Position numbers and translations under genes: made by a program. The notes under the pieces are model-generated. The model saw only the letters and a program-made list of their open reading frames with translations. It had not been told where the DNA came from and ran no database searches. Positions 14,475 through 64,000 of a stretch of 64,000 bases of DNA are shown piece by piece; position 1 is the first letter of the stretch, and each line of letters opens with the position of its first letter. This stretch comes from Escherichia coli (GTDB lineage: Bacteria; Pseudomonadota; Gammaproteobacteria; Enterobacterales; Enterobacteriaceae): assembly GCF_003790525.1 (NCBI RefSeq), contig NZ_CP033635.1. One strand, given 5' to 3'.

Positions 14475-15440
14475 ATGTCAGACTATCAAATGTTTGAAGT
14501 ACAGGTGAACCAAATTGAACCGCTTACCGAACAGGTGAAACGCTTCACGCTGGTGGCAACCGATGGCAAACCATTACCTGCGTTTACCGGAGGAAGTCAC
14601 GTCATTGTGCAGATGAGCGATGGTGATAACGAGTACAGCAATGCGTATTCACTACTGAGTTCGCCGCATGACACCTCTTGTTATCAGATTGCCGTTCGGC
14701 TGGAGGAAAACTCGCGCGGCGGTTCCCGCTTTTTGCATCAGCAGGTAAAAGTGGGCGATCGGTTAACGATTTCAACGCCTAATAACCTGTTTGCGCTAAT
14801 TCCCTCGGCCAGAAAGCATCTGTTTATCGCGGGAGGCATTGGTATCACCCCTTTCCTGTCGCACCTGGCAGAGATGCAATACAGCGACGTCGACTGGCAG
14901 TTACATTACTGCTCACGAAATCCAGAAAGTTGCGCATTTCGTGATGAGCTAGTCCAGCATCCGCAGGCTGAGAAAGTTCATTTTCATCACTCATCAACCG
15001 GAACACGACTGGAATTAGCGCGATTATTGACGGATATCGAACCTGGCACACATGTTTATACCTGTGGCCCCGAGGCGCTAAATGAGGCGGTAAGAAGTGA
15101 AGCTGCGCGTCTGGACATCGCCGTCGATACGATGCACTTTGAACAATTTGCGATTGAAGACAAAACCGGCGATGCATTTACCCTGGTGCTTGCCCGTTCC
15201 GGTAAAGAGTTTGTGGTGCCGGAAGAGATGACTATTTTGCAGGTTATTGAAAATAATAAAGCAGCGAAAGTGGAATGTTTATGTCGTGAAGGGGTATGCG
15301 GAACCTGCGAAACGGCAATACTGGAAGGTGAAGCTGACCATCGGGATCAGTATTTTAGCGATGAAGAGCGTGCCAGCCAGCAAAGTATGTTGATCTGTTG
15401 TTCGCGCGCGAAGGGTAAACGCCTGGTGTTGGATTTGTAG
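14475..15440 (+). CDS. yeaX: carnitine monooxygenase reductase subunit YeaX (CntB-like), 321 aa
   Basis: Full-length ORF; plant-type 2Fe-2S cysteine cluster (CREGVCGTCE) and FNR-like flavin/NAD domain. Confidence 0.92.
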   Translation: MSDYQMFEVQVNQIEPLTEQVKRFTLVATDGKPLPAFTGGSHVIVQMSDGDNEYSNAYSLLSSPHDTSCYQIAVRLEENSRGGSRFLHQQVKVGDRLTISTPNNLFALIPSARKHLFIAGGIGITPFLSHLAEMQYSDVDWQLHYCSRNPESCAFRDELVQHPQAEKVHFHHSSTGTRLELARLLTDIEPGTHVYTCGPEALNEAVRSEAARLDIAVDTMHFEQFAIEDKTGDAFTLVLARSGKEFVVPEEMTILQVIENNKAAKVECLCREGVCGTCETAILEGEADHRDQYFSDEERASQQSMLICCSRAKGKRLVLDL

Positions 15441-61402: not shown

Positions 61403-63214
61403 TTAAAAAGTGATACAGGTTGCGCCCTGTTCGGCACCGGACAGTTTTTCACGCAAGGCGCTGAATAATTCACGTCCTGTTCCCACGCGTGACGCGCTCA
61501 GGTCAGGAATGTGCGGTTCGCGAGCAGCCAGTTCCGCTTCGTCTACCAGCAGCGTCAGTTCGCCTGTCTGTCCATTCACACGAATGATGTCCCCGTCGCG
61601 CACTTTTGCCAGCAGCCCGCCATCGTAGGCCTCTGGTGTTACGTGGATAGCTGACGGCACTTTACCTGAAGCGCCGGAGAGTCGTCCATCGGTAACTAAC
61701 GCAATTTTGAAACACCGGTCCAATAATACACCAAGTGGCGGCATGAGTTTATGTAATTCTGGCATTCCGTTCGCTTTTGGCCCCTGATGACGGACAACAA
61801 CGACACAATCGCGGTCCAGCAAACCCGCTTCAAAGGCCGGCATAACGTCATGCTGGCTTTCAAAAACAACCGCTGGCGCTTCAATCACCTGGTTCTCTAC
61901 CGGCACGGCAGAGGTTTTCATAACCGCACGGCCCAGGTTACCGCTTAACACTTTTGTCCCACCATGATGAGAGAAAGGTTGTTCGAAGGAAGCGATCACA
62001 TTGCTGTCGAGTGATTTTTCCGCCCCTTCCCGCCAGTCCAGTTCACCATTATTCAGCCATGGTTCAAGGGTATAACGAGACAGACCAAAGCCTGCCACCG
62101 TATTGACATCTTCATGCAGCAGGCCTGCTTTGAGCAGTTCACGCACCAGAACCGGTACGCCACCTGCCGCCTGGAAGTGGTTAATATCAGCCGGACCGTT
62201 CGGGTAGAGACGTGCCATCAGCGGTACAACATCAGAAAGGTCAGAGAAGTCATCCCAGTTAATCTGAATACCGGCCGCGCGTGCCATCGCCACCAGGTGC
62301 ATGGTGTGGTTAGTGGAACCACCGGTCGCCAGCAGTGCAACGATACCGTTCACCACCACTTTCTCATCTATCATCTTACCGATCGGCATCCATTCATTAC
62401 CATTACCGGTCATGCGTGTAACCTGGCGCGCAGCGGCTGCGGTCAAAGCATCGCGCAGCGGAGAATCCGGATGAACAAATGAAGAGCCTGGCAACTGCAT
62501 CCCCATAAACTCCACCACCATCTGGTTGGTGTTGGCAGTACCGTAGAAAGTACATGTTCCCGGCGCATGATAAGATGCGGCTTCTGACTCCAGTAGTGCC
62601 ATGCGGTCCACTTTACCTTCGGCATAAAGCTGACGAATACGCACTTTTTCTTTATTTGGCAAACCGCTTGCCATCGGTCCAGACGGCACAAACACCGCGG
62701 GCAAATGCCCAAACGACAGGGCTGCCATAGTCAGACCCGGAACAATCTTGTCGCACACACCGAGGAACAGCGCACCATCAAACATGTTATGGGACAGCCC
62801 CACCGCCGCAGACATCGCAATCACTTCGCGGCTTAACAGCGACAATTCCATTCCATCCTGCCCCTGGGTGACACCATCACACATCGCCGGAACACCGCCC
62901 GCAACCTGACCAACCGCATTTGCTTCATGCAGGGCTTTACGAATGATTTCTGGATAGTGTTCATAAGGCTGGTGCGCGGAGAGCATGTCGTTATAGGAGG
63001 TGATGATGGCGATATTGTTACGCAACATGCTTTTCAAAGAGGCTTTGTCTTCTGGCTGGCAGGCAGCGAAACCGTGTGCCAGGTTACCGCATGCCAACTG
63101 CGAACGATGAACGGTCGAAGTTTTCGCTTGTTCTATCCGGGCGAGATAAGCAGAGCGAGTCTCGCGCGAACGTTCAATGATTCGATTTGTTACGCGTAAC
63201 AATTGTGGGTTCAT
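61403..63214 (-). CDS. edd: phosphogluconate dehydratase Edd, 603 aa
   Basis: Full-length ORF; ILVD/EDD dehydratase family. Confidence 0.97.
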
Positions 63215-63333
63215 AAAGGCTCCTGAAATTGAGTTGTCAGAGCAGGATGATTCACAACGCGTTTCATTCAGAGGATTTATGACTGAAACGCCTGTAACCG
63301 GAGCTCATAGGGCAAAAACGTTTCAGTCAGTGT

Positions 63334-63370
63334 AATAAAAAAAGCCTCGTGGGTGAATCCGCACGAGGCC
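63334..63370 (-). terminator. intrinsic terminator downstream of zwf
   Basis: Minus strand GCCTCGTG-loop-CACGAGGC followed by TTTTTTTTA. Confidence 0.7.
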
Positions 63371-63408
63371 TGAAAGTGTAAAAATTGTTCTACAATCTGT
63401 GCAAGATC

Positions 63409-63424
63409 ATGTTACCGGTAAAAT
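63409..63424. promoter_or_regulatory. GntR operator upstream of edd
   Basis: ATGTTACCGGTAAAAT closely matches the GntR palindromic consensus ATGTTACCGGTAACAT. Confidence 0.7.
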
Positions 63425-63448
63425 AACCATAAAGGATGAGCGCAGATA

Positions 63449-64000
63449 TTACTCAAACTCATTCCAGGAACGACCATCCCGGGTAATCATCGCCACTGAG
63501 GCAACGGGTCCCCAGGTTCCGGCCTGATACGGTTTCGGCGCATCATTGTCCATCGCCCACGCCTCAGTAATGGAGTCTACCCATTTCCAGGCTTCTTCCA
63601 CTTCATCACGACGTACAAACAGTGCCTGAATACCACGCATGGTTTCCAGCAGCAGACGTTCATAGGCATCTGCCAGATGCGTTTGATTAAAGGTTTCTGA
63701 ATAGCTCAGATCCAGCTTGGTGATTTGCAGGTTATGTTTATGGTCAAGGCCAGGAACTTTATTTAGTACCTGGATATCCACGCCTTCATCAGGTTGCAGA
63801 CGGATAGTCAGTTTATTCTGCGGCAGATCCTGCCACGACTCTTTAAACAGATTCAGTTCAGGTGTTTTGAAATAGACCACGACTTCAGAACATTTGGTCG
63901 GCAGACGTTTACCAGTACGCAGGTAGAATGGCACACCGGCCCAGCGCCAGTTATCAATGTCGACGCGGATCGCCACGAAGGTTTCTGTATTGCTGCTCTT
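63449..64000 (-). CDS. zwf: glucose-6-phosphate dehydrogenase Zwf, C-terminal 183 codons; 5' end beyond window
   Basis: ORF in frame to the window edge; C-terminal G6PD sequence (...QAGTWGPVASVAMITRDGRSWNEFE). Confidence 0.93.
   Translation of the reverse strand, partial: KSSNTETFVAIRVDIDNWRWAGVPFYLRTGKRLPTKCSEVVVYFKTPELNLFKESWQDLPQNKLTIRLQPDEGVDIQVLNKVPGLDHKHNLQITKLDLSYSETFNQTHLADAYERLLLETMRGIQALFVRRDEVEEAWKWVDSITEAWAMDNDAPKPYQAGTWGPVASVAMITRDGRSWNEFE

Follow-up and report, generated by a model that had tools for sequence, protein, structure and literature searches.

Positions 63215-63448 of the window, by which we mean the whole 64,000-nucleotide stretch of DNA that was analysed, are the 234-bp intergenic spacer between zwf and edd of Escherichia coli. 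Both genes lie on the minus strand, and their names were taken from the RefSeq annotation of matching E. coli genomes. The spacer was found in 5425 of 5426 complete E. coli genomes, and only two substitutions over its whole length distinguish the window from MG1655, with the repeats described below being identical. The features assigned to the locus are given here in the direction of transcription, with distances relative to a predicted start of the edd promoter P1:

63449-64000, minus strand: 3' end of zwf (glucose-6-phosphate dehydrogenase), stop codon 63449-63451; from the ORF list and RefSeq annotation
63409-63424, no strand assigned: predicted GntR operator O1, ATGTTACCGGTAAAAT, centre at about -94.5; ATTTTACCGGTAACATGATCT is near-invariant in about 60 species
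63337-63369, minus strand: intrinsic terminator of zwf, stem 63369-63362 / 63351-63344, loop CGGATTCACC, run of seven T at 63343-63337
63352-63357, minus strand: putative -35 hexamer of P1, TTCACC, inside the near-invariant terminator loop
63329-63334, minus strand: putative -10 hexamer of P1, TACACT, within near-invariant ATTACACT; predicted start at about 63322 (range 63320-63324)
63312-63327, no strand assigned: predicted Cra operator (site A), ACTGAAACGTTTTTGC, centre at about +3.5; holds most of the repeat arm 63319-63329 (arm A)
63280-63297, no strand assigned: repeat arm B (63280-63290) in a weak Cra-like site B (63282-63297, ACTGAAACGCCTGTAA on the plus strand), at about +33.5
63253-63270, minus strand: third repeat copy C, TGAATGAAACGC at 63270-63259, direct with respect to A and inverted with respect to B; contains AACGCGTT at 63256-63263
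63220-63224, minus strand: Shine-Dalgarno sequence of edd, AGGAG, assigned from the sequence and kept in an alignment of 22 species
61403-63214, minus strand: edd (phosphogluconate dehydratase) coding sequence, ATG at 63214; from the ORF list and RefSeq annotation
63187-63202, no strand assigned: predicted GntR operator O2, the perfect palindrome TTGTTACGCGTAACAA in edd codons 5-9, centre at about +128.5 and 222 bp from O1

For comparison, edd loci were collected from 80 species, and the upstream regions of 61 Enterobacteriaceae sequences (60 loci plus the window) were aligned. The spacer has a fixed skeleton that starts with ATTTTACCGGTAACATGATCT and about 30 variable bases, followed by a hairpin with the near-invariant loop GGATTCACC and by CTTTTTT(T)ATTACACT. 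A 16-mer of the GCTGAAGCGATTTTGC type, represented in E. coli by ACTGAAACGTTTTTGC, comes next, and a variable leader then precedes the ribosome-binding site.

The hairpin of this skeleton is G+C-rich, lies between O1 and the inverted repeat and folds at -18.9 kcal/mol. In 30 species its stem shows compensatory changes at 4 pairs while the loop is almost constant, which confirms it as a real terminator hairpin and provided a positive control for the covariation test applied to the repeat arms. A promoter/terminator scanner called neither this terminator nor P1: its loop limit is 8 nt, and both P1 hexamers have 4 of 6 matches, for a total of 8 of 12 where the scanner requires at least 9.

In every genus 17 bp separate the invariant loop from TACACT, even where the T-run differs by one base, and this fixed spacing has the appearance of a sigma-70 promoter signature. 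The hexamers TTCACC and TACACT and their spacing, derived here from conservation in about 60 species, are the same as those given independently for the zwf-edd spacer in a genomic SELEX study, where the spacer was bound by the RpoD holoenzyme and TTCACC-17-TACACT was listed as its best promoter, a computed best match within the bound spacer and not a mapped start (Shimada et al., PMC3946193, Table 2). The start near 63322 was placed by the usual 7-nt distance to the -10 hexamer. The loop of the zwf terminator carries the -35 hexamer of P1, and the T-run forms the promoter spacer. For edd, the transcription start table of Kim 2012 (glucose-grown cells) lists only weak starts inside zwf, and the Cappable-seq supplement has no start entry in the coordinate range searched; the start tables without P1 are from glucose-grown cells. 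Two other candidate promoters near O1, TTGCAC-18-TACACT and GTAACA-17-TAGAAC, were rejected, being unconserved beyond Escherichia and Citrobacter and giving transcripts that would run into the terminator.

A GntR operator at 63409-63424 had been recognized in the first-pass annotation, and it was confirmed: O1 has a single mismatch to ATGTTACNNGTAACAT and is invariant in about 60 Enterobacteriaceae species. That annotation had overlooked the second operator O2, as well as the terminator, P1 and repeat copy C. O2 has two mismatches to the same consensus, confined to the outermost bases, compared with one to three in the sites identified in the control regions of gntT, gntK and idnK. Only five 16-mers with three or fewer mismatches occur in the window, and the best two, O1 and O2, flank P1. 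Both match the palindrome ATGTTAC-NN-GTAACAT with these mismatches, and both are conserved next to gluconate-catabolism genes, being near-invariant in the 61 sequences.

The conservation of O2 extends to synonymous sites of the edd coding sequence. Leu6 is encoded by TTA and Val8 by GTA in 61 of 61 sequences, and Thr9 by ACA in 59 of 61, whereas nearby invariant Arg, Ser and Thr residues use 3-5 codons. By this codon usage, O2 is held at the DNA level. O1 in turn lies a fixed 60-61 bp from the loop motif GGATTCACC that contains the -35 hexamer, and all length change between the operators occurs downstream of the promoter. The distance between O1 and O2 falls into three groups, 209-214 bp (12 species), 218-223 bp (48 species) and 232 bp (one species), with none between, although this clustering partly reflects shared ancestry. 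The steps correspond to about one helical turn, and such stepped distances would fit repression by DNA looping as in other LacI-family systems.

P1 is reportedly under GntR control, and the layout of its operators resembles the loop geometry of gal OE/OI or lac O1/O2. The GntR site pairs of gntT (141 bp apart) and gntKU (13 bp apart) have the same ATGTTAC-NN-GTAACAT palindrome and are paired as at edd. At edd, in contrast, neither operator overlaps the promoter hexamers and one is located inside the coding sequence. Double GntR sites have been noted before (PMC4052901). Outside the aligned group, loci of Serratia, Xenorhabdus, Erwinia, Rahnella and Proteus have a GntR-like TTACCGGTAAC box much nearer to edd, approximately 80-140 bp upstream, and these loci have neither the terminator-promoter skeleton nor a box within the gene.

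Closer to edd than O1, a perfect 11-nt inverted repeat had been described, and it is present as TGACTGAAACG (63280-63290) and CGTTTCAGTCA (63319-63329) with a gap of 28 nt. The repeat is not a chance occurrence, because no more than 47 of 20,000 first-order Markov simulations of the 234-bp spacer produced a perfect 11-nt inverted repeat with a gap of 3-60 nt, and because 3 of the 15 TGAAACG heptamers in the window are clustered within 66 bp here. The third of these heptamers belongs to copy C, and the three copies, TGA(C/A)TGAAACG, have 10 of 11 bases in common. Copy C also contains the palindrome AACGCGTT, which does exist but begins one base before the position assigned to it earlier (63256-63263 instead of 63257-63264) and is by itself at chance level, with 0.75 such 8-bp palindromes expected per 234 bp. 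Copy C is limited to Escherichia and some Citrobacter.

The outer bases of the arms vary, whereas the TGAAACG core is fixed in all three copies in every Escherichia sequence examined. Among the sampled variants, base 63283 in arm B is G, C or A in E. coli and T in E. albertii, and one sampled E. coli variant has a change in an arm A base as well, yet no arm change is compensated. Uncompensated arm polymorphisms were also found in E. albertii and E. whittamii. To judge from this variation, a fixed core with uncompensated outer changes is the pattern expected of a protein half-site, not of a helix.

Between arm B and copy C the spacer shows an unusual degree of polymorphism in E. coli. Positions 63255-63335 are identical in only 2959 of 5425 E. 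coli genomes, and in 758 of 5425 the identity is 90-95%. One haplotype of this segment equals the sequence of Escherichia sp. MOD1-EC7003, a match that suggests recombination between lineages.

The earlier proposal that the repeat forms a hairpin in a leader RNA was examined in two versions, namely pairing of A with B in zwf read-through transcripts, or of B with C in the P1 leader, with effects on stability, processing or translation of the edd mRNA. Folding energies speak for such structures. When arm A is transcribed, as in zwf read-through, the A:B hairpin (-20.2 kcal/mol) is the dominant structure of the ensemble, B:C reaches -12.4 kcal/mol in the P1 leader, three repeat copies permit alternative pairings, and the whole spacer folds better than shuffled sequences (z = -4.7). 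However, the leader alone reaches only z = -1.3, the strong zwf terminator upstream should limit read-through, and neither hairpin touches the Shine-Dalgarno sequence.

The position of the repeat is a further difficulty. With the predicted start, arm A (63329-63319) would run from about -7 to +4 relative to the conserved promoter P1. The P1 mRNA would hold at most its last few bases and could not form the A:B hairpin, because the start would lie inside arm A; from P1 only B:C could form. The covariation test that recovered the terminator stem gave nothing comparable for the arms. In the alignment of 22 species A:B pairing was 76.1%, equal to the shuffled mean of 76.1%, with 287 of 500 shuffles as high, and a single pair covaried, i.e. 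changed on both sides. B:C pairing was 60.3%, compared with 58.4% in shuffled controls. RNAalifold found no consensus pair in the leader, and an Rfam scan of 62900-63800 at a permissive E-value returned chance hits only, with E above 2 and scores far below gathering thresholds. Together with the uncompensated polymorphisms within E. coli, E. albertii and E. whittamii, these data leave a regulatory RNA hairpin as a very unlikely explanation. The perfect 11-nt complementarity is better read as a lineage-specific by-product than as a selected hairpin.

Each arm instead lies in a 16-bp Cra-type site of its own, and in E. coli only the site of arm A scores like a real operator. The other earlier proposal, binding of a second dimeric regulator, was right in spirit in that the arms carry the TGAAACG half-site of Cra (FruR), but the arms do not combine into a single dimer site. 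The Cra motif has been given as gcTGAAtCGaTTCAgc (PMC5888115). Sites were scored with a weight matrix made from nine MG1655 sites picked by consensus, namely two at fruB and those of ppsA, pykF, pckA, aceB, pfkA, epd and fbp. With this nine-site matrix, site A reached 12.5 bits and rank 7 among 127,970 window positions, and the known sites, scored leave-one-out, ranged from 9.1 to 20.5 bits. Its orthologues score 13-17 bits in most genera, and Klebsiella and the Enterobacter cloacae complex have lost the site. The E. coli scores of site B (2.3 bits) and copy C (0.5 bits) are both below the range of the known sites. Orthologous B sites nevertheless score 10-16 bits in some Citrobacter, Trabulsiella, Leclercia, Lelliottia and Silvania, and B is always found 30-31 bp downstream of A in the opposite orientation.

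The architecture of site A is that of known Cra operators. Those of fruB, pfkA, pykF, epd, aceB, ppsA, pckA and fbp are asymmetric 16-bp elements in which a strong GCTGAAnCG half is joined to a weak half, and site A is built likewise; it differs at its first position (A for G) and in its weak half (TT for CA). Sites B and C have only the 7-bp core in common with these operators. Site A matches the motif, is conserved and, with the predicted start, lies at or just after the RNA polymerase site, its position at the start being typical for Cra-repressed genes. A review lists edd-eda as repressed by Cra, the Cra site lying over or after that of RNA polymerase (PMC4393010). Binding of Cra and its relief by fructose-1-phosphate or fructose-1,6-bisphosphate are also reported for edd-eda in reviews (PMC4393010), and the FruR regulon takes in Entner-Doudoroff genes in Escherichia and Salmonella (PMC4052901). 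In the main text of a Cra ChIP-exo paper edd is not named among the bound sites, a RegPrecise-based supplement has no edd entry, and a full-text literature search for the operator sequences returned cloning primers only.

Two further matches to the Cra matrix were noted in the window. One, the half-site GGTGAATCC in the loop of the terminator, was discarded as a Cra site at 5.5 bits and rank 205. The best match in the window, GGTGAAACGCTTCACG at 14534-14549 with 18 bits, lies approximately 60 bp inside the coding sequence of yeaX (carnitine monooxygenase reductase), just after yeaW.

Taken together, the region is the known P1 control region of edd-eda, governed by GntR and Cra, and its repeat is best explained as a pair of facing Cra-type half-sites, not as an RNA hairpin. 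On this account, which we hold likely as a whole, two Cra-type sites contribute their outward-facing strong halves to the inverted repeat, and E. coli has retained a good site A and of site B only the core.

A narrower reading is that site A alone matters, with B and C as non-functional remnants or chance echoes and a perfect repeat that has no function of its own. It overlaps with the preferred account, and the sole difference is a residual function of B and C. The low Cra scores of B and C in E. coli agree with it, as do the absence of C outside Escherichia and some Citrobacter and the polymorphism of the B-to-C segment, which within E. coli exceeds that of the rest of the spacer. Against it, all Escherichia sequences examined keep the TGAAACG core of B and C unchanged, three copies within 66 bp are improbable by chance, and strong orthologous B sites exist in several genera. 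We regard the narrower reading as quite possible, though we would not call it probable.

The three TGA(C/A)TGAAACG copies could also be an array at +3, +33 and +62 for a regulator other than Cra, such as KdgR, which had been put forward earlier as a protein to test at this region, or another LacI-family protein. The KdgR operator is a palindrome, AATGAAACANTGTTTCATT, and the box begins with AATGAAAC. Copy C reads AATGAAAC, which equals the KdgR half-site and counts in favour of this idea, and the likeness of all three copies at 10 of 11 bases goes beyond what a Cra core needs. KdgR reportedly controls an eda promoter inside edd. The suggestion of KdgR found no support, however, in a scan of the window with the KdgR consensus: no strong match occurred anywhere, and the best matches at A and C had 6 mismatches in 18 positions, although this is a weak test. 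Moreover, E. coli strains differ in the bases that flank the TGAAACG core, and across genera the conserved 16-mers follow the Cra motif, GC flanks included. An array for KdgR or a related regulator is accordingly judged highly improbable, and Cra-type sites remain the preferred interpretation.

With GntR and Cra as the regulators, the following mechanism may be proposed. RNA polymerase would use TTCACC-17-TACACT, nested in the zwf terminator, and start near 63322. GntR, the LacI-family gluconate repressor, would bind O1 (about -94.5) and O2 (about +128.5) on both sides of the promoter and probably repress by looping out the 222 bp between them. The inverted repeat would represent the strong TGAAACG halves of two opposed 16-bp Cra-type sites with a separation of 30 bp. 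Site A, situated over the start, would be the working Cra operator, where Cra without bound fructose phosphates would block initiation or promoter escape. Site B would have decayed to a half-site in E. coli, its counterparts in several other genera being good Cra sites, and copy C would be a further half-site.

A more speculative extension, which we consider rather unlikely, is an ancestral symmetric clamp. In such an arrangement Cra operators at about +3.5 and +33.5, with their strong halves outward, would have held the initial transcribed region, maybe bridged by one tetramer. The clamp would have been enclosed in a GntR loop of about 222 bp with helical phasing, anchored upstream beyond the terminator that carries the -35 hexamer. 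It would be partly decayed in E. coli, with B and C still assisting.

Repression of edd-eda P1 by GntR and Cra is reportedly established, and the finding, although real, is an ordinary one, since control of this promoter was already known. The locus is the same as the E. coli edd-eda P1 system, the promoter hexamers match those of PMC3946193, and the Cra placement matches PMC4393010. Nothing material differs from the known system; the additional half-sites B and C, the embedding of the promoter in the zwf terminator and the GntR operator phasing may or may not already be described.

What is gained is an explanation of a striking perfect repeat in a textbook operon that needs no new RNA element, and beyond a tidier annotation it carries little weight. 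The layout is compact, with a terminator, a promoter, a Cra operator and two flanking GntR operators in about 240 bp. In engineering of Entner-Doudoroff flux, silent recoding of the 5' end of edd would destroy the GntR operator in codons 5-9, and promoter replacement can unintentionally remove control elements, as the -35 hexamer of P1 is in the loop of the zwf terminator.

Some minor elements of the leader and its surroundings were also recorded. A 14-codon ORF from 63308 was considered as a leader peptide and rejected, as it has no Shine-Dalgarno sequence and its ATG is missing in other genera. Perfect 8-bp palindromes are frequent, with seven in about 310 bp (63150-63460) compared with about one expected. 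Four of the seven are accounted for, three as cores of O1, O2 and Cra site A and one as AACGCGTT in copy C; the other three are TCGCGCGA (63162), GAACGTTC (63168) and ACAATTGT (63199). The codons beneath TCGCGCGA and GAACGTTC vary at synonymous sites. In Enterobacter, Lelliottia and relatives, the leader contains a different palindrome, GTTGTTAACAAC, at about -70 to -55 from the edd ATG, a position that corresponds to that of the B-C loop in E. coli.
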